Shown here: piece after piece, positions 26,750 to 60,543 of the stretch | Numbering within the stretch: position 1 is the stretch's first letter | Layout: each line of letters starts with the position of its first letter | Source of the DNA: Candidatus Woesearchaeota archaeon | GTDB taxonomy: Archaea > Nanobdellota > Nanobdellia > Woesearchaeales > GW2011-AR4 | Direction of reading: 5' to 3' | NCBI GenBank assembly: GCA_016184145.1 | Contig: JACPDF010000021.1 | Location: 8,422 to 72,421 of the forward strand | DNA length: 64,000 nt | The notes under the pieces: generated by a model | What the model was told of the DNA's origin: nothing | Database searches by the model: none | The model's input: only the letters and a program-made list of their open reading frames with translations | Made by a program: the position numbers and the translations under genes

Positions 26750-26760
26750 GGATAAAAAAG

Positions 26761-26868
26761 CCTCCGGTGGGATCTGCACCCACGACCTTTGCCTTTTTAG
26801 GCTGCATAGTACCAAGGCTTCGCGGATACTTTTGGTATCTAACGCAATAGCTACTATGCTACGGAGGC
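26761..26868 (-). ncRNA. tRNA-like structured small RNA (non-canonical; possibly an intron-containing or degenerate tRNA)
   Basis: On the minus strand, a 5' GCCUCCG pairs with a 3' CGGAGGC. A T-arm-like GUGGG-UGCAGAU-CCCAC is present. An internal 8-bp helix GCAUAGUA/UACUAUGC encloses a hairpin GAUAC-CAAAA-GUAUC. The element is followed by an oligo-T run. It does not fold as a canonical 76-nt cloverleaf. Confidence 0.3.
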
Positions 26869-26915: not shown

Positions 26916-27776
26916 CTAAGAATATAAGGTGGTCTTTATGTAACTCAAAGGCAAATCATTAAAATTAGGGTAGAAAGTAAGAGGATTTAAACGACCATTC
27001 AAAACCTTAAGCCTTTCATTCAAAGTGGTATAAGGAGGGCAAAATCCAGATTTCTCCCAAATGTTTACTTTAGTAACATGTTTAAGATTCTTAAAACCAA
27101 TGTCTTTTATCCATTTTAAGACATCACTTTTGGAGTCTACTATCACTGAGTGCATAGTATATTCATTTTTTCTTTGTTTTATAGGCTTTTGAATTCTTGG
27201 ATGAAAACCCAAACCTATTAATAAACTATAAACTTCTTCAATTAGAGTATAAGATATTGTAGCTAGTTTTATTTTTGGCCTATAATGAAAAGCATTATAA
27301 ATTGATTTTTTCTTTCTCTTGTTGTAACTTTTGCAAAAATAGATACTTCCATCTGTATCAAACAAACCTCTAATAAAACATATTTTCTCTCTTAGAGTTT
27401 TTATTTTAAAGGGTACAGATATTGCATATTTTTTACCGTTTTTCAAATTAAAATTGCTTTGCAGAAATTGAATAAAATCTCTTTGAAAAACATAAATTCC
27501 ACAAACTCCTACAGATTTATAAATCCTCAACTTTGCCGGATTATTTAATTGACTCGTAAATAAACGATTAAAAGTTGGGACGACAACTTTTTTGTAGAAT
27601 GGGTATTCCTCAACAATATCTCCTGTTAAAGTGTATTGGTAGTGCCGTTTATTAATACTTATACAGCCATCGCCAACATGCCAACCCAGAAATTCTGCTA
27701 ATTCTTCTGAATAATCTTTATTCTCTCCATTATTTGAATTATTTTCAAAATCCAAAATTATATTTTGATTTTTCAT
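26916..27776 (-). CDS. free-standing LAGLIDADG homing endonuclease (two-motif type)
   Basis: Two LAGLIDADG motifs, LAEFLGWHVGDGCIS and IRGLFDTDGSIYF, in a basic 286-aa protein. Confidence 0.8.
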   Translation of the reverse strand: MKNQNIILDFENNSNNGENKDYSEELAEFLGWHVGDGCISINKRHYQYTLTGDIVEEYPFYKKVVVPTFNRLFTSQLNNPAKLRIYKSVGVCGIYVFQRDFIQFLQSNFNLKNGKKYAISVPFKIKTLREKICFIRGLFDTDGSIYFCKSYNKRKKKSIYNAFHYRPKIKLATISYTLIEEVYSLLIGLGFHPRIQKPIKQRKNEYTMHSVIVDSKSDVLKWIKDIGFKNLKHVTKVNIWEKSGFCPPYTTLNERLKVLNGRLNPLTFYPNFNDLPLSYIKTTLYS

Positions 27777-27779
27777 ATT

Positions 27780-28315
27780 TCAGGAATTGGTTTAGGAAAA
27801 AACAAAATAATTAAGATTTGGATATTTAAATACTCTACGCGCGAATGTCCAGTGGAGTATTGGCATGTCCAGTGGGTAAAAAGAGAAGAAATGCGGAGGA
27901 GGGGACTCCCAAATCCTGAGGGATTTGTGGTCTCCCTCTGGGATATTTGAACCCCCGGACCCACTAAGGGACAGGATATCTTCGTTACAACAGAAGTGTC
28001 CAATATGGGCCACTGCTGACCTTAAGTTTCGCAGTGAATTTCTATCCCTCCTGCGCGTTTGGCCAGGCTTCGCTACCTCCGCATCAAAGCCAAAAGAAAA
28101 GAAAACCCTATTTAAACGTTACTGTTAGGAAACTTTTGTATACCCAAGTGACATATGTCACTAGGGAGATATTGAAATATATCGACTACAAAATCAAAAG
28201 GTTGTTTTCAGGTTTGCTCTTCCACTGAAAGGGGTAATAAGGGTTTTTTTGATATCTTTGACGACAAATGGATCTAGCATTGCATTGGTGACAAATGTCA
28301 CTAGGGCGTACACTG
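27780..28315 (-). other. 0.5-kb non-coding region with tRNA-like and palindromic repeat structure
   Basis: No ORF of plausible coding quality. On the minus strand, a 7-bp terminal helix GCGGAGG/CCUCCGC (28082->27891) encloses a tRNA-like 5' end (GCGGAGG-UA-GCGA-AGCCUGGCCAA-ACGC), a T-loop-like GGGGGUUCAAAUAUCCC and several hairpins. Duplicated motifs are GTGACA(T/A)ATGTCACTAGGG (28148..28166, 28288..28306) and ACTGTTAGGAAACTTT (28121..28136, 28312..28327). Confidence 0.35.
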
Positions 28316-28837
28316 TTAGGAAACTTTAATCTTGTACAGCTCAAAAAAGCTCTTCAAGCGTTTATGCAACTCGTAGCAATCAGCTTGTACAGGTCCCTCA
28401 TACCTTTCCGTTATAGTCTGCCCTATTCCCCATATGTATTTGTCATAAAGAGTCCTGAAAAATACGTACAAAGGATTCACCTGAGTCCATCTTGACCTGA
28501 GGATTGTTTCCACCCAGCCATCTATGTTGACAAAAATATTAGCCTCGTTAAACTTTACATACCTCCCTCTCCTTTTCTGACTTACTTCCCTTACATTATC
28601 AAACAAAGCCCTCAGCTTTATCATGTGCTTTACCTCTCTCGCTGGGCTTTTCCATAGTTCAACTGCATATTCTATCCTTTTGCCTTTTGATTTTACTTCC
28701 TCTGATTTTCTCTTTATCTCTTTCTCAAGGCCTTTTTCCCTAGCCCATTTGTCAACTTCTTTATAAAAATCTTCTACTGACAATGGTCCATTGTACTTAA
28801 GCATTAAATCATAAACTACTTGTTTTTTTTCTACCAT
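28316..28837 (-). CDS. unknown-function protein, paralog family member 1 of 3
   Basis: 173 aa. It shares Y-GP...F..I....E.G......SKGK-IE...WK...W-Q-P-F-R-IY--F-YK with 28842..29384 and, more distantly, with 29591..30211. Confidence 0.55.
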   Translation of the reverse strand: MVEKKQVVYDLMLKYNGPLSVEDFYKEVDKWAREKGLEKEIKRKSEEVKSKGKRIEYAVELWKSPAREVKHMIKLRALFDNVREVSQKRRGRYVKFNEANIFVNIDGWVETILRSRWTQVNPLYVFFRTLYDKYIWGIGQTITERYEGPVQADCYELHKRLKSFFELYKIKVS

Positions 28838-28841
28838 TTGA

Positions 28842-29384
28842 TTAATGCGCGGATGCGAAAGGCGCTGCTACCGATATTACCTTATAGCTCCTGTATGTGT
28901 TTAAAAACTGCTCAATGGTGTGGTGCAAATGATGCATGTCATGGGTCAGCTGCTGCTCAAACCTCTCAGTGTAAATTTTGTAGACAAAATTGTTGTAGAT
29001 TGACCTTAAAAACTGAAAAAATGGGAATTGCTCCCATCTGTTTGACTCGTCAAGCTCAAGGTAAGCATCGATATAAATAACCGCCCTTCCGTTCCCAACC
29101 TTGACTTTTTTATTCTCCATTATGGCTTCAACTTTGCTGTAGTCATAAATCAAAATTCTGATTTTAGGCCAATACCTGGCATAATCTGATATTCTTTTCC
29201 AGCATTTTATCTGCCATTCTATTTGTTTTCCCTTGGAGGTGTTATTTTCAAACTCCTTTTCCGTCTTTAAATCCCACCCTCTCTCCTTTAGAAAAGCGGT
29301 TATGTGCTTGAACAATGAGTTGGCATCAAAAGGCCCTTCATAATTAAGCCTTAGATGGTCAACAGTCAGCCTTAACTCAGACAT
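28842..29384 (-). CDS. unknown-function protein, paralog family member 2 of 3
   Basis: 180 aa, 4 nt downstream of member 3's intergenic region and 4 nt upstream of member 1, so members 1 and 2 form an operon. Confidence 0.55.
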   Translation of the reverse strand: MSELRLTVDHLRLNYEGPFDANSLFKHITAFLKERGWDLKTEKEFENNTSKGKQIEWQIKCWKRISDYARYWPKIRILIYDYSKVEAIMENKKVKVGNGRAVIYIDAYLELDESNRWEQFPFFQFLRSIYNNFVYKIYTERFEQQLTHDMHHLHHTIEQFLNTYRSYKVISVAAPFASAH

Positions 29385-29391
29385 GCTAAAA

Positions 29392-29418
29392 ATTCACCTC
29401 GTGAATTTTTGCACACAA
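29392..29418. promoter_or_regulatory. perfect 10-bp inverted repeat at the promoter of paralog 2
   Basis: AAAAATTCAC-ctc-GTGAATTTTT lies 8-35 nt upstream of the ATG of 28842..29384. Confidence 0.4.
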
Positions 29419-29495
29419 GAGCGAAGCTCTGTGCCGAACTCCGTTCGTGCACCGAAAATCTAATGGAAATCTCTTTGAAATTCTTTGAATTTCTA

Positions 29496-29578
29496 AGAGA
29501 TACAGAAAATCTTTGATTTTCTCGTATCTTTGATTTCCAGTAGATACCAAAAATCCTTTGGATTTTTTAGTATCTTTG
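29496..29578. repeat. two adjacent imperfect ~32-bp palindromes between paralogs 3 and 2
   Basis: GATACAGAAAATC-TTT-GATTTTCTCGTATC and GATACCAAAAATCC-TTT-GGATTTTTTAGTATC. These could be a terminator or an operator. Confidence 0.35.
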
Positions 29579-29590
29579 ATTTTCATGTGT

Positions 29591-30211
29591 TTATCTCACC
29601 TTGGCGAAGTACCTGTGTTCATATCCTTCAGCTTCCATCTTTAGCCTTTCTTTAACCAAAGAATGCAGTTTCAGGAAAACATTATAATGCATGGTGTCCC
29701 ACCATATGGCCTCTATCTTTTTCCATATGACATATTTGTGGTAAAAGTTCCTTAAATTGACATAGAAGGCATTTTCCTCCCATCTTTTGTCATAATCAGT
29801 CTCAACCTTTCCTAGGAATTGTATCCACAATCTTCCTTTTGTAAAGGTTTTTTTTGTGCCGTCTTTCATGGCAACTTCCACATCCTGTGTGTCGTATGTA
29901 TGCAGGAACAGCGTGATAACAAAGCGGTAATATTCCTCAACGTCCCTCTTTGCCTCCCACACATGATATGTTTCAGGACCGAAGGGCCCGGGATGCTTCA
30001 CAATATACCTTTTCTCATAAAACTTGAACTTGTTCTTAGTAAAAAAAGAAGCCACAAACTCATACAAATCCTGCATGTCCCAGACCCCCTTATATTGTAT
30101 GTATGTTGGCCATGTAGGCGCTTCCTTATGCGTCCAGGGTAAAGGTTCCACCATGAGAAAATTCCCGTATAGAATGTATATAAATGTTGCGGAAAATTTG
30201 TGATTTCGCAA
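29591..30211 (-). CDS. unknown-function protein, paralog family member 3 of 3
   Basis: 206 aa, a divergent member of the same family, with the motifs Y.G...L..F..F, WE..R, LR.FY.KY. Confidence 0.5.
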   Translation of the reverse strand: MRNHKFSATFIYILYGNFLMVEPLPWTHKEAPTWPTYIQYKGVWDMQDLYEFVASFFTKNKFKFYEKRYIVKHPGPFGPETYHVWEAKRDVEEYYRFVITLFLHTYDTQDVEVAMKDGTKKTFTKGRLWIQFLGKVETDYDKRWEENAFYVNLRNFYHKYVIWKKIEAIWWDTMHYNVFLKLHSLVKERLKMEAEGYEHRYFAKVR

Positions 30212-30279: not shown

Positions 30280-30358
30280 CCTCGAAAACTCTGTTTTCCG
30301 CTGGTTTTTGTTTTTTTTTTGCAAAAACCTCGAAAACTTGTTTTCCGCTGGTTTCTAC
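30280..30358. repeat. two ~29-bp direct repeats upstream of paralog 3
   Basis: ACCTCGAAAACTCTGTTTTCCGCTGGTTTTT and ACCTCGAAAACTTGTTTTCCGCTGGTTTCT are separated by a T-run. Confidence 0.4.
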
Positions 30359-35123: not shown

Positions 35124-36206
35124 ATGAAAATAAAAATATATATTTCACTAATCTTAGTTTTCATATTAAATTTTTTTATAGTGAATGCTATTGATTCTGT
35201 TACAGATGCACTGATAGAAGGTCAAACAAAAACATATACGATTGACGGCAAGACTTATGAAGTTACACCGAATTTTATTGACTCGGACGAAGCACAGTAT
35301 ATTGTTAATGGTAGAGTAACTAAAAAATTGAAAGCTGGTGATACTTATAATATATCAGAAGACATAGTAATTGGTGTAATAAACATTTTGTACCAAGACT
35401 ATGCTGGTGGCATTCACAGCACAACATTTGCTCTTACCCAAATAGAGCGATGTGGCAATAGTATATGCGGTGAAGGAGAAACATGCTCATCATGCCAACA
35501 AGATTGCGGCTGTGTTTCAGGATATGCGTGCCAATCAGAACAATGTATACAAGTAGTATTCTGCGGAGATAATAAATGCGGCCCTGAAGAAACTTGTGAA
35601 AAAGATAATTGCTGCTATGGAAGAACTGTTGATTTGAATTCTGATAGATACTATTGCGGTTCTTGCGGCAATGTTTGTATTACTAATCAAGACTGTATTT
35701 CTGGCATCTGTAAATTTCCTGAATATTGTGGAGATGACGCTTGCAATTCAAACGAGAACTGTGGAACTTGTGCTGAAGATTGTGCTTGTGCAAAAAACAC
35801 AAGATGTGAGTTAAATAAATGTGTAACTTACTGTGGTAACGGAATTTGCGAATCAAATGAGAAAGGTATTTGCAAAGCAGATTGCAAATGGTGCGGTGAT
35901 AGCAGTTGCAATGGCAATGAAGATTATAAAAAGTGTCCTCAAGATTGTGAAAGACCAATTATTTGCAGCGATAAAATATGTGATAATAATGAAAACTGTT
36001 GCATAGATTGTGGTTGTGATATTGGTTACGAGTGCATAAGTAATTCTTGTGTTTTAGCTTATGAATGCATATCAAATTCTGATTGTGGTGGTAATGAGGT
36101 CTGCATCAATAATAAATGTGTTTTAGTTGCTCAAAATACAATAAAAGAAGGACAAAATGTTTTGCAAGTTGTTATTAAATGGTTTTTTGGTTTATTTAGG
36201 AGGTAG
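35124..36206 (+). CDS. secreted Cys-rich protein with about 8 tandem CGxxxC…E.C..C..DC modules
   Basis: Signal peptide, then repeated modules such as CGNSICGEGETCSSCQQDCGC and CGDDACNSNENCGTCAEDCAC. Confidence 0.6.
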   Translation: MKIKIYISLILVFILNFFIVNAIDSVTDALIEGQTKTYTIDGKTYEVTPNFIDSDEAQYIVNGRVTKKLKAGDTYNISEDIVIGVINILYQDYAGGIHSTTFALTQIERCGNSICGEGETCSSCQQDCGCVSGYACQSEQCIQVVFCGDNKCGPEETCEKDNCCYGRTVDLNSDRYYCGSCGNVCITNQDCISGICKFPEYCGDDACNSNENCGTCAEDCACAKNTRCELNKCVTYCGNGICESNEKGICKADCKWCGDSSCNGNEDYKKCPQDCERPIICSDKICDNNENCCIDCGCDIGYECISNSCVLAYECISNSDCGGNEVCINNKCVLVAQNTIKEGQNVLQVVIKWFFGLFRR

Positions 36207-58308: not shown

Positions 58309-60543
58309 ATGTATGAATTAATCATAACAGAAAAGCCTACTGCAGCGAATAGGATAGCAGAGGCTTTGGCTGACGGAAAACCAATCAAGGAAAATGCAAG
58401 TGGTGTCCCGTATTACAAAGTAACGAGGGGGAAGAAAGACATAATAGTAGCTTGCGCTGTTGGCCATTTATACAGCTTAACCCAGAAAGAAGGCAAGAAA
58501 TGGAACTTTCCAGAATTTAACATCGAATGGAAGCCTGCTGGAGAGGTAAGCAAGAGGTCAGATTTCTCAAAAAAATACCTGAATGTAATAAAGAAATTGT
58601 CCAAGGAAGCGAATGAATTCACGGTAGCGACAGATTTTGATGTTGAAGGAGAAGTAATAGGGTTAAATGTCATTAGATATGCATGCAAGAAAAAAGACGC
58701 AAACCGGATGAAGTTTTCCACATTGACAAAGCCGGATTTGATTGAAGCGTATGAAAACAAACTGTCAAGTTTGGACTGGGGCCAGGCTAATGCTGGAGAA
58801 ACAAGACATTTCCTCGACTGGTACAACGGGATAAACTACTCAAGGGCATTAACCTCATCGATAAAAGCCGCAGGCTCATTTAAGCTCATGTCCACAGGCA
58901 GAGTCCAGGGGCCTGCATTAAAGATAATTGTGGACAGGGAAAAAGAGATAAAAGCATTTAAGCCAGTTCCATTCTGGCAGATTGAGCTGCAGGGAGATGT
59001 AAGCAAAGGGCAGATAATAGCATGGCACAAGGAAGACAAGTTCTGGGAAAAGGAAAAAGCAGATGAGGTAATAAAAAAAACAAAAAATGCCAAAGAAGCC
59101 ACAGTAGAAAGCACGGAAAAAAGGCAGTACCAGCAAACACCTCCAACTCCATTTGACCTAACCACGCTGCAAATAGAAGCATACCGCTGCCATAGGATAA
59201 GCCCTAAGGAAACATTGCAGATAGCACAAGAGCTGTACACCTCAGGATTCATCTCTTATCCGAGAACCTCCTCCCAAATCCTATCAGAAAAACTCGGCTT
59301 CAGGAAAATATTTTCAGAGCTTGCAAGGCAAAAAAATTATTCTGATTTAATAAATAAATTGTTGTCTAAAAAAACCTTAAAGCCAAATAATGGAAAAAAG
59401 GCTGATCCTGCCCATCCTGCTATCTATCCCACAGGCATACAGCCGGGAAACCTCAGCCAGAGAGAAGAAAAAATATATGATTTGATTGTAAAAAGATTCA
59501 TGGCAACTTTCTCGGAAGCAGCAACAAGGGAAACAGCAACAATAGACATAAATTGCAAAGAAGAGATTTTCATAGCAAAAGGAACAAGGACAACAGAAAA
59601 AGGATGGCATCTCTTTTATCAGCCATACGTGAACATAGAAGAGGAAGAGCTTCCAGCGGTAAGCAAGAATGATCAAGTTGCAGTCAAAAAAATAAAATTG
59701 CATGAAAAGGAAACGCAGCCGCCAAAGCGCTACACTCCAGCTTCCATAATAAAGGAATTAGAAAAAAGGAATTTAGGAACCAAAGCAACAAGGTCGGAGA
59801 TTGTAGACACTCTGTTCAATAGAGGCTATGTAACAGGAAAAGCAATAGAAGCGACAAACTTGGGAATAAAAACAGTAGAAACCCTGGAAACATACGCCCC
59901 GAAGATAGTCGATGAGGAATTAACAAGGCATTTTGAAGAGGAAATGGAGGAAATAAGGGAAGGCAAAAGAAAGGGGAAGGAAGTTCTGGAAGAGGCAAAA
60001 GAGGCAATAACAAATATAATTGTGGATTTCAAAAAGAAAGAGAAAGACATAGGAAAAAAACTGCTGGAAGCCAACATAGAGACCAGGGATGCTTTAAGCA
60101 ATTTGGGAAAATGTCCAAAGTGCAATCAGGGAGACCTGCAAATAAGAAGAGGCAAGTTTGGAAGCTTTGTGGCATGCAACCAGTATCCAAAGTGCAAGAC
60201 TACATTCTCATTGCCTAAAAACACATTGATAAAGCCGGCGCAAAAATCATGCGAAACATGCACTTTTCCCAAGGTATTGGCAATAAGGAAAGGGAAACAG
60301 CCCATGGAATTCTGCCTGAACCCAAAATGCCCCACAAAGCACGTGGAAGGCGCAGCAGGAAGAGAGGCAAAAGCCATAGCCAAGGGAGAAATAGAAAAAA
60401 GCTGCCCGGAATGTAAGGAAGGAAACCTGGTTTTAAGAGGCTCAATTTATGGAAAATTCTACGGCTGCTCCAATTACCCAAAGTGCAAATACACGGAAAA
60501 GCTCGGAGAAGGTCCGTTAAAAGAGGACTTTGCCAAAAAGTAA
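58309..60543 (+). CDS. topA: DNA topoisomerase type IA (TopA/Topo III-like) with C-terminal zinc ribbons
   Basis: Toprim N-terminus (LIITEKPTAANRIAEAL…DFDVEGE). Three C-terminal C4 zinc-ribbon repeats (CPKCNQGDL…CNQYPKC). Confidence 0.9.
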   Translation: MYELIITEKPTAANRIAEALADGKPIKENASGVPYYKVTRGKKDIIVACAVGHLYSLTQKEGKKWNFPEFNIEWKPAGEVSKRSDFSKKYLNVIKKLSKEANEFTVATDFDVEGEVIGLNVIRYACKKKDANRMKFSTLTKPDLIEAYENKLSSLDWGQANAGETRHFLDWYNGINYSRALTSSIKAAGSFKLMSTGRVQGPALKIIVDREKEIKAFKPVPFWQIELQGDVSKGQIIAWHKEDKFWEKEKADEVIKKTKNAKEATVESTEKRQYQQTPPTPFDLTTLQIEAYRCHRISPKETLQIAQELYTSGFISYPRTSSQILSEKLGFRKIFSELARQKNYSDLINKLLSKKTLKPNNGKKADPAHPAIYPTGIQPGNLSQREEKIYDLIVKRFMATFSEAATRETATIDINCKEEIFIAKGTRTTEKGWHLFYQPYVNIEEEELPAVSKNDQVAVKKIKLHEKETQPPKRYTPASIIKELEKRNLGTKATRSEIVDTLFNRGYVTGKAIEATNLGIKTVETLETYAPKIVDEELTRHFEEEMEEIREGKRKGKEVLEEAKEAITNIIVDFKKKEKDIGKKLLEANIETRDALSNLGKCPKCNQGDLQIRRGKFGSFVACNQYPKCKTTFSLPKNTLIKPAQKSCETCTFPKVLAIRKGKQPMEFCLNPKCPTKHVEGAAGREAKAIAKGEIEKSCPECKEGNLVLRGSIYGKFYGCSNYPKCKYTEKLGEGPLKEDFAKK

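Follow-up and report, generated by a model that had tools for sequence, protein, structure and literature searches.

Multiple and non-canonical tRNA introns have been described in DPANN archaea, including a Woesearchaeota genome, along with an increased disruption of tRNA genes and with splicing endonucleases that are able to cut non-canonical sites in these lineages, and disrupted genes that have escaped detection remain (PMC5829648). Here we describe a further locus of this kind. It lies in a 64-kb stretch of DNA (hereafter called the window) that is placed in Candidatus Woesearchaeota (DPANN) through homologs of a 173-amino-acid (aa) open reading frame (ORF), and it occupies a 0.5-kb region, positions 27780-28315, that an initial annotation had described as an ORF-free segment with a tRNA-like domain and duplicated palindromic motifs. 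This region is very probably a composite of a tRNA-Leu(UAA) gene carrying three introns and a miniature transposable element, which together form the best joint explanation of its features, and both components are fresh instances of feature types that are already known. The tRNA gene is like the multi-intron tRNA genes of Thermoproteales and DPANN archaea in its bulge-helix-bulge or relaxed junctions, in the rapid gain and loss of its introns between relatives, and in being missed by standard tRNA finders. As a new instance it is distinguished by its identity, a tRNA-Leu(UAA) interrupted at positions 30/31, 37/38 and 59/60, and by a first intron that forms only a bulge-helix-loop in the window.

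The second component is most similar to members of the IS481 family, which have TGT…ACA ends and among which the archaeal ISMac4 makes 15-bp target duplications and its relatives 15- or 16-bp ones (PMC10045372). The element resembles the members with 15-bp duplications (archaeal ISMac4 and ISA0963-1, and eukaryotic IS481EU) in its TGT…ACA ends, its short inverted repeats and its 15/16-bp duplication, and a full-length relative at another locus (L037) encodes a single DDE (rve) transposase. Unlike these members, the window copy is 176 bp long and lacks an ORF, and each of its inverted repeats is internally palindromic. Moreover, the L037 transposase scores below the NCBIfam curated threshold, and relatives also hold 36-bp copies that consist of the two termini only (L034).

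Two further systems invite comparison. The tRNA-Leu(UAA) of bacteria and plastids is also interrupted in its anticodon arm, by a group I intron that is a self-splicing ribozyme located at position 34/35. However, no group I model matches here, and the junctions at 30/31 and 37/38 fit protein-spliced archaeal introns. In the ‘collaborative homing’ of T4-like phages and cyanophages, free-standing homing endonucleases cooperate with ORF-less introns. The locus is similar in that a conserved gene holds an ORF-less intron and a free-standing LAGLIDADG gene lies ~150 bp or less away from it; the 30/31 intron always accompanies an intact copy of the endonuclease gene at such loci, and one locus (L069) has the gene inside the intron. 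It differs in that an archaeal tRNA intron spliced by proteins takes the place of the group I intron, and in that the target of the endonuclease is only predicted.

The interrupted tRNA-Leu(UAA) gene

On the minus strand, GCGGAGG (28082-28076) pairs with CCUCCGC (27899-27893), which confirms a terminal helix proposed in the initial annotation, and the enclosed unit (28082..27892) is 191 nt long. Its 5′ end reads GCGGAGG-UA-GCGAAGCCUGGCCAAACGC, the acceptor/D-arm-like sequence noted there, and its 3′ end reads CCUCCGC-A. When three introns are removed in silico, the resulting 86-nt sequence is identified by ARAGORN as tRNA-Leu(taa), whose acceptor stem has 7 bp. The predicted product is a canonical cloverleaf with the leucine identity features of a long variable arm, A73 and a Leu anticodon. 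On the strength of these sequence features and of the orthologs described below, we conclude that 28082..27892 is a genuine tRNA-Leu(UAA) gene, predicted to be interrupted by three archaeal introns of the bulge-helix-bulge type (Table 1).

Table 1. Coordinates of the features assigned in and around the 0.5-kb region of the window
Feature	Position	Strand	Remarks
Promoter region of the downstream free-standing LAGLIDADG gene	27780-27890
TATA box of the LAGLIDADG gene	27830-27823	-
Two direct copies of CCACTGGACAT, 20 nt apart	27875-27865 and 27855-27845	-	Past the tRNA terminator and ahead of the LAGLIDADG TATA box
Oligo-T tract UUUCUUCUCUUUUU	27878..27891	-	Directly after the tRNA; probable archaeal terminator, judged from its sequence
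tRNA-Leu(UAA) gene	27892..28082	-	191-nt precursor region; predicted mature tRNA 86 nt, long variable arm, discriminator A73
Exon 4, positions 60-73	27892..27905	-	T-stem 3′ strand, acceptor 3′ strand, A73; CCA not encoded
Intron 3, 40 nt, T-loop position 59/60	27906..27945	-	Bears the GAGGGA…UCCCUC hairpin
Exon 3, positions 38-59	27946..27977	-	Anticodon stem 3′ strand, long variable arm, T-stem 5′ strand, T-loop
Intron 2, 43 nt, canonical position 37/38	27978..28020	-	In all orthologs, with divergent sequence
Exon 2, positions 31-37, ACUUAAG	28021..28027	-	Holds anticodon UAA; joined to exon 1 in L007, L010 and L013
Intron 1, 22 nt, non-canonical position 30/31, AGGGAUAGAAAUUCACUGCGAA	28028..28049	-	Placed by comparison with orthologs
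Exon 1, positions 1-30	28050..28082	-	Acceptor 5′ strand, D-arm, anticodon stem 5′ strand; same sequence as the L010 exon
Putative archaeal TATA box TTTAAATA	28109..28116	-	3′ end 27 nt upstream of the tRNA 5′ end; function judged by the consensus of archaeal promoters
Target-site duplication, promoter-proximal copy CTGTTAGGAAACTTT	28122..28136	.	16th matching base A28121 ambiguous; collinear with the L011 ORF end and promoter
Non-autonomous IS481-like element (miniature inverted-repeat transposable element), 176 bp	28137..28312	.	TGT…ACA ends, no coding capacity; inverted repeats abut the direct repeats
Left terminal inverted repeat TGTATACCCAAGTGACATATGTCAC	28137..28161	+	First palindrome of the initial annotation
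Right terminal inverted repeat, reverse complement TGTACGCCCTAGTGACATTTGTCAC	28288..28312	-	Second palindrome of the initial annotation
Target-site duplication, ORF-proximal copy	28313..28327	.	Holds the last three codons and stop of ORF 28316..28837(-)

The tRNA nature suggested by the initial annotation was right, therefore, but ‘tRNA-like domain’ understated a complete and apparently functional three-intron gene. Likewise, GGGGG-UUCAAAU was correctly recognized as a T-stem 5′ strand and T-loop, but the adjoining AUCCC is not the 3′ strand of that stem: it is the start of the 40-nt intron 3, and the real partner, CCCCU, is located past this intron. Two hairpins that had been pointed out are present and find a place in the precursor, with GAGGGA…UCCCUC forming the stem of intron 3 and GGACA…UGUCC joining intron 2 to exon positions 42-46. 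The coordinates given for all of these items, and for the palindromic and repeated motifs discussed below, are correct to within 1-2 bases. The region can be called ORF-free in the sense that its ORFs of 61-76 aa are unsupported, but such ORFs do exist mechanically.

The unspliced gene goes undetected by ARAGORN, which finds no tRNA in the window in its default and intron modes. A scan of the unspliced region against Rfam, as had been proposed in the initial annotation, likewise returns no match at gathering thresholds, and nothing reaches these thresholds over the full 64 kb; permissive E-values yield only noise far below threshold (a miRNA, an Enterococcus sRNA and a snoRNA), which we rejected. 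Inspection of models with a single intron in the anticodon arm produced none with a 7-nt loop that includes U33 and a Leu or Ser anticodon. Thus, two introns are needed in this arm, which the orthologs later confirmed.

Syntenic loci were reached through homologs of the 173-aa ORF upstream of the tRNA. Five orthologous loci (L007, L010, L011, L013 and L015) yield the same 86-nt tRNA-Leu(UAA) after the removal of different sets of introns. As in the window, every one of these genes has an intron at 37/38. It is the only intron in L010, whose exons are identical to those of the window; L007 has additional introns at 8/9 and in the D-loop, L011 and L015 at 8/9 and 30/31, and L013 at 8/9 and 59/60. 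Because the orthologs give the same tRNA with different inserts removed, the intron boundaries are not a product of the cuts that were chosen. The single-intron ortholog (L010:869-985) is also a match to the Rfam tRNA model, at 44.4 bits, and a tRNA-Thr ortholog that neighbors it scores 52.6 bits. Across the orthologs from close Woesearchaeota relatives, at least six intron positions are used in this one tRNA.

Indeed, orthologs that lack an intron are collinear across the predicted junctions of introns 1 and 3. Intron 1 is missing precisely at its predicted junction in L007, L010 and L013, whereas in L011 and L015, and in more than 20 loci besides, the same 30/31 site is occupied. Intron 3 is absent from L007, L010, L011 and L015, and the same site holds a 70-nt intron in L013 and a 39-nt intron in L045. 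The mature tRNA-Leu is conserved even between relatives that share only 65-83% identity in their flanking proteins, and the introns diverge freely. The initial annotation had held that its reading would be refuted if homologous regions in relatives could not be aligned and were not transcribed; a lack of alignment describes the spacer upstream of the tRNA, which is hypervariable, but is clearly untrue of the tRNA itself.

To evaluate the splice sites, we checked for pairing between two 4-nt segments per intron, one whose last base is 2 nt ahead of the 5′ cut and one that is placed likewise with respect to the 3′ cut. Among the 16 introns of six orthologs (the window included), the 4-bp central helix is fully paired in 11 and has three of four pairs in the other 5; chance expectation for full pairing is ~2%. 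Within the window, introns 1, 2 and 3 form 4/4, 3/4 and 4/4 pairs, respectively, which agrees with the cleavage geometry of archaeal tRNA introns if relaxed variants are allowed. Intron 3 comes near the strict motif, with the helix UUCA/UGGG, bulges AA^U and AG^U, and the 5-bp T-stem as outer helix. It is the only strict-like intron of the window, introns 1 and 2 being relaxed. Intron 1 has the central helix CGCA/UGCG and 3-nt bulges GG^A and AA^A, and the central helix of intron 2 (C32UUA35/GAAG) is fully paired in its counterparts from L011 and L013.

A further pairing recurs: the equivalent of GGACA (intron 2) with UGUCC (exon positions 42-46) covaries in 11 of 23 orthologs, compared with 10% in a cross-control, its versions including GUGGCA/UGUCAC, CCGACA/UGUCGG and GGAGCA/UGUUCC. 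Minimum-free-energy and suboptimal folds do not produce a strict bulge-helix-bulge for intron 2, but instead favor pairing between introns 1 and 2 and a competing hairpin within the intron. These two introns (27978-28049, minus strand) are extensively complementary (CACUGC/GCAGUG, GAUAGAA/UUCUGUU), which leaves exon 2 in an apical loop, and the internal hairpin of intron 2, CUUC/GAAG, mimics the anticodon-loop pairing and competes with the canonical helix.

A promoter block, (T)AG(Y)AAYRTTTAAATA…GGTTTTCTTTTCTTTT, that includes the TATA box is conserved in 6 of 6 aligned orthologous loci, and T-rich tracts also follow the tRNA in L042 and L045. The precursor would be transcribed from this TATA promoter, ~27 nt upstream, and would end at the oligo-T tract. 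The archaeal tRNA splicing endonuclease would then cut both ends of each intron, 2 nt 3′ of either strand of the 4-bp helix as in the bulge-helix-bulge geometry, and the four exons would be ligated, presumably by an RtcB-type ligase, to give the 86-nt class-II tRNA-Leu. Intron 1 is probably excised first, because the anticodon stem that flanks 37/38 is contiguous only after its removal. Some orthologs (L007:5712-5727, L011:1508-1523, L013 and L015) carry an extra 11-nt 5′ leader, ATGCCAGGCAA, that is complementary to GCCUGG of the D-loop. This leader is found only in orthologs with the 8/9 intron, where it can lengthen the outer helix of the 8/9 splice motif, and the window and L010 are without both.

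A probable IS481-like miniature element

Both motif pairs described upstream of the tRNA in the initial annotation are present, the first as GTGACATATGTCACTAGGG (28148-28166) and GTGACAAATGTCACTAGGG (28288-28306), which are 95% identical, and the second as two exact copies of ACTGTTAGGAAACTTT at 28121-28136 and 28312-28327. The two pairs are nested as one unit, with the order direct repeat, inverted repeat, inverted repeat and direct repeat. According to a repeat finder, the perfect 16-nt direct repeats directly flank a 25-nt inverted repeat (28137-28161/28288-28312) that is 84% complementary. The core of these terminal repeats is GTGACAWATGTCAC; the palindrome GTGACAWATGTCACTAGGG lies at 28148 and 28288, and its core occurs only these two times in 64 kb. 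The unit starts with TGTATACCC… at 28137 and ends with …GGGCGTACA at 28312, it spans 176 bp, and it is overlapped only by a 52-aa mechanical ORF. Its flanking repeat, ACTGTTAGGAAACTTT, has the length expected of an IS481-type target-site duplication, 15 bp or 16 bp with one ambiguous base. In simulations, exact direct repeats of ≥15 nt within 400 nt occurred at 0.095 per 64-kb window, any being found in 11 of 200 first-order Markov simulations. Such direct repeats are therefore rarely produced by chance. By analogy with archaeal members of the family, we assign 28137-28312 as an IS481-type non-autonomous miniature element with its target duplication.

The spacer between the stop codon of the upstream ORF and the tRNA promoter measures 0 nt in L011, ~45 nt in L013 and ~165-190 nt in L015, L007 and L010, where its sequence is unrelated. 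The end of the L011 ORF is fused directly to the promoter, as AAAGTTGCTTAATAGCAATATTTAAATA, and this junction is collinear with the promoter-proximal repeat copy and promoter of the window, AAAGTTTCCTAACAGTAACGTTTAAATA. Because of this collinearity, the window can be understood as an L011-type junction with a 191-bp insertion made up of the element and the duplicated target.

Relatives of the element were sought with CCCWAGTGACATWTGTCAC as the query in a scan of a genome collection (one genome per prokaryotic species), which returned 25 loci. The archaeal matches come from metagenome-assembled genomes (MAGs) of Nanoarchaeota, Woesearchaeota, Pacearchaeota and Methanosarcinales. They have the full terminus TGTRYRCCCAAGTGACATATGTCAC in common, which often lies at contig ends, as is the case with multi-copy repeats. 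A Nanoarchaeota MAG carries a complete 934-bp element (L037:6050-6983) with the same termini and a perfect 15-bp duplication, GTCTAATATCCTCAA. It encodes a 279-aa DDE transposase whose best NCBIfam family is IS481 (E=6e-49, full-length alignment) and which passes the Pfam rve model. A Woesearchaeota locus (L034) has a 36-bp element of the two termini only, with a 15-bp duplication around it. Such 36-bp palindromic mini-elements, consisting of two IS481-like termini TGTACACCCAAGTGACAT|ATGTCACTTGGCACTACA, were observed at L034:6326-6390, where the perfect target duplication is CGGTAAAATAGAATA, and also in L028, L031 and L039. Six contigs from Logan (L001-L006) are identical to the window.

The palindromic GTGACAWATGTCAC motifs would be the transposase-binding ends of the element, and the ACTGTTAGGAAACTTT duplication would have been made by staggered cutting of the target at insertion, in the space that separates the tRNA promoter from the stop codon of the upstream gene. 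The duplication would have kept this stop codon intact, as well as the bases directly ahead of the tRNA TATA box. An insertion so close to the promoter was probably tolerated because both were regenerated in this way.

Several observations weigh against parts of this composite interpretation and need to be set beside its alternatives. In the window, intron 1 lacks a good outer helix and is a bulge-helix-loop at best, and the central helix of intron 2 contains one A·G mismatch, so that it is not a strict bulge-helix-bulge. Together with the failure of standard detectors to see a tRNA, such degenerate and mismatched helices could be those of a tRNA-derived pseudogene, or of a tRNA-like structured RNA, in which the 191-nt unit is not spliced to a working tRNA. 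However, all four exon blocks are undamaged and match the single-intron ortholog L010 exactly, the mature sequence has been kept at a degree of flanking-protein divergence where introns change freely, and the promoter and terminator are conserved. In addition, no other tRNA-Leu(UAA) was seen in the syntenic regions. We consider it highly improbable that the unit is such a pseudogene or unspliced RNA, and retain the three-intron tRNA gene. For the miniature element, the points of weakness are that the L037 transposase reaches 167 bits against a curated NCBIfam IS481 cut-off of 224 and comes from a different DPANN genome, that one copy of the element is present in 64 kb and the scanned collection did not include the source genome, and that the empty-type junction is taken from L011, whose flanking protein is only 71% identical and which is not a sister strain.

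Palindromic 14-mers spaced 140 bp apart beside a promoter do look like operators, and transposon ends can be co-opted, so that the palindromes and 16-mers might serve a transcription factor or the LAGLIDADG protein in regulating the tRNA or its neighbors. Yet the palindrome GTGACAWWTGTCAC has no match in the LAGLIDADG-homolog loci that were fetched (L042-L126), nor in the orthologous loci without the endonuclease gene, whose tRNA-Leu promoters (L007, L010, L011, L013 and L015) lack it as well. Elsewhere, it marks the termini of an element with a transposase gene and of repeats that break assemblies, with 15-bp duplications on either side, and the 16-mer merely copies the last codons of the upstream gene. 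Operator sites are a very unlikely explanation, and the suggestion that the palindromes are targets of the adjacent LAGLIDADG protein found no support in these sequences. The idea of protein-binding sites survives only insofar as terminal inverted repeats bind a transposase, and not as homing-endonuclease or regulator targets; as pieces of a structured RNA the motifs fare no better, since Rfam gives nothing above noise. A different origin was considered because of the 15-16-bp duplication. Cas1-type casposases make ~14-16 bp duplications next to tRNA genes, and the terminal inverted repeats and the location at a gene 3′ end beside a tRNA gene also resemble casposon sites. However, the complete relative in L037 encodes an IS481-type DDE/rve transposase rather than Cas1, and TGT…ACA ends with 15-bp duplications are documented for archaeal IS481 members (PMC10045372). 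We rejected a casposon- or integrase-derived remnant, which has next to no chance of being correct, in favor of the IS481-type element. Taken together, the observations underlying the initial annotation are confirmed, and its interpretation is partly supported.

The LAGLIDADG gene and the 30/31 intron

The ORF at 26916..27776 (-), ~115 nt downstream of the tRNA-Leu, encodes a two-motif LAGLIDADG protein of 286 aa (Pfam PF14528), which shares 100% identity with HYU50_01980 (NCBI), from a Woesearchaeota MAG. It is absent from L007, L010, L011, L013 and L015. In four of these, tRNA-Leu is followed by tRNA-Thr(GGU) within 5-80 nt, and in L011 an adenine glycosylase gene is found instead. The gene family is closely coupled to tRNA-Leu(UAA) in Woesearchaeota (L042, L043, L045 and L047-L069), and homologs with 50-74% identity directly adjoin this tRNA in L042, L043, L045 and loci from a metagenome scan, despite differing outer neighbors. 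Most are located 3′ of the tRNA, and some are 5′ of it or inverted. The gene varies in presence between relatives, as is evident from L011 (empty) and L042 (filled), which have the same synteny.

An insert at 30/31 is present in 23 of 23 distinct loci where an intact homolog lies next to tRNA-Leu(UAA), a raw count that ignores kinship. Among loci without the endonuclease gene, three lack the 30/31 intron and two have it (again raw counts). The only allele that has an adjacent homolog but lacks the 30/31 intron, represented by L106:1200-1726 and L107, carries this homolog as a remnant of ~50 codons. In L069:1453-2367, the tRNA-Leu(UAA) has an 816-nt insert at 30/31 that contains a LAGLIDADG ORF of 270 aa (1495-2307; 45% identical), and the stop codon of this ORF is the tRNA anticodon UAA. 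The junctions of the insert have bulge-helix-bulge geometry (CGCA/UGUG, bulges GG^U and AA^A). L080 and L083 look like additional cases of a tRNA whose intron houses an endonuclease gene. A group I intron was considered for the endonuclease-bearing inserts of L069, L080 and L083, none of which gave an Rfam match. Another locus, L057:273-1380, holds a complete tRNA-Leu(UAA) with a T-stem intron, then a LAGLIDADG gene and then an orphan second tRNA 3′ end, GTGGGTTCGAATCCCATCTCTCGCA, an arrangement that looks as if a cassette had inserted into the T-arm.

The repeated motif CCACTGGACAT of the window recurs upstream of homologous LAGLIDADG genes in L042, L045, L047, L048, L053, L055, L059 and L060, and a motif CCACTGGACA(T) separates the tRNA terminator from the LAGLIDADG TATA box, both in the window, where it has two copies, and at many homologous loci. 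The CCACTGGACAT repeats loosely resemble the intron-less 30/31 junction, GCAGGACTT.

These associations raise the possibility that the 22-nt 30/31 intron and the LAGLIDADG gene, which stands free, home together as a cooperative unit, a tentative proposal on which we place less than even weight, the association being correlative and cleavage a prediction only. Where a tRNA-Leu(UAA) allele has no intron, the endonuclease would cut it across the 30/31 junction, whereas the intron would shield its own allele, and repair would copy the intron and the endonuclease gene together.

Other features of the window and implications

The feature at 26868..26759 (-), called the first tRNA-like domain in the initial annotation, is a tRNA-Thr(GGU) gene with two introns, one of 22 nt at 28/29 that ends in GCGAA like intron 1 of tRNA-Leu and one of 15 nt at 37/38. 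A relaxed ARAGORN search gave three matches in the window. One, at 26759-26868, was called His with the wrong intron and is actually this tRNA-Thr(GGU), and those at 36048-36141 and 58765-58987 were rejected as ordinary coding-like sequence without a T-arm. The tRNA-Thr has an unusual D-loop, AGUAGCUA (no GG), and an unusual T-loop, UGCAGAU, both of which are kept in the orthologs of L007, L010, L013 and L048, and the L007 copy has a T-loop intron.

Upstream of the element, 28316-30211 (-) comprises three tandem paralogous ORFs of 173, 180 and 206 aa without a Pfam domain. This family is conserved and syntenic in many Woesearchaeota, and it is upstream of tRNA-Leu in all loci examined. Exact direct repeats of 16-17 nt were observed at two more places in the window, 30292-30355 and 2037-2096, with the copies within 50 nt; CCAGCGGAAAACA…GTTTTCGAGG occurs twice downstream of a CBS-domain gene, and ATACTTAAAATATACTT occurs twice in an AT-rich spacer.

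To default tools, this 64-kb DPANN stretch seems to be without tRNA genes, and it actually holds two, tRNA-Leu(UAA) and tRNA-Thr(GGU). Multi-intron tRNA genes of this kind make MAGs look ‘tRNA-incomplete’, and intron-aware annotation is needed. The six or more intron positions of one tRNA gene among close relatives also offer a compact data set on the speed at which protein-spliced introns turn over. Likewise, the miniature element documents IS481-type activity, with its unusual 15-bp duplications, in ultrasmall archaea. Since the tRNA gene and the element are both of known types, these findings as stated are of modest interest, and it is the association of tRNA-Leu, the LAGLIDADG gene and the 30/31 intron that makes the locus worth following up. 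A review has called the mechanism of archaeal tRNA intron transposition unknown and leaves homing endonucleases unmentioned (PMC4090602). If the cooperative homing proposed above is true, archaeal tRNA introns that are spliced by proteins would have a mechanism of mobility acting at the DNA level, and homing endonucleases would be tied to their spread.

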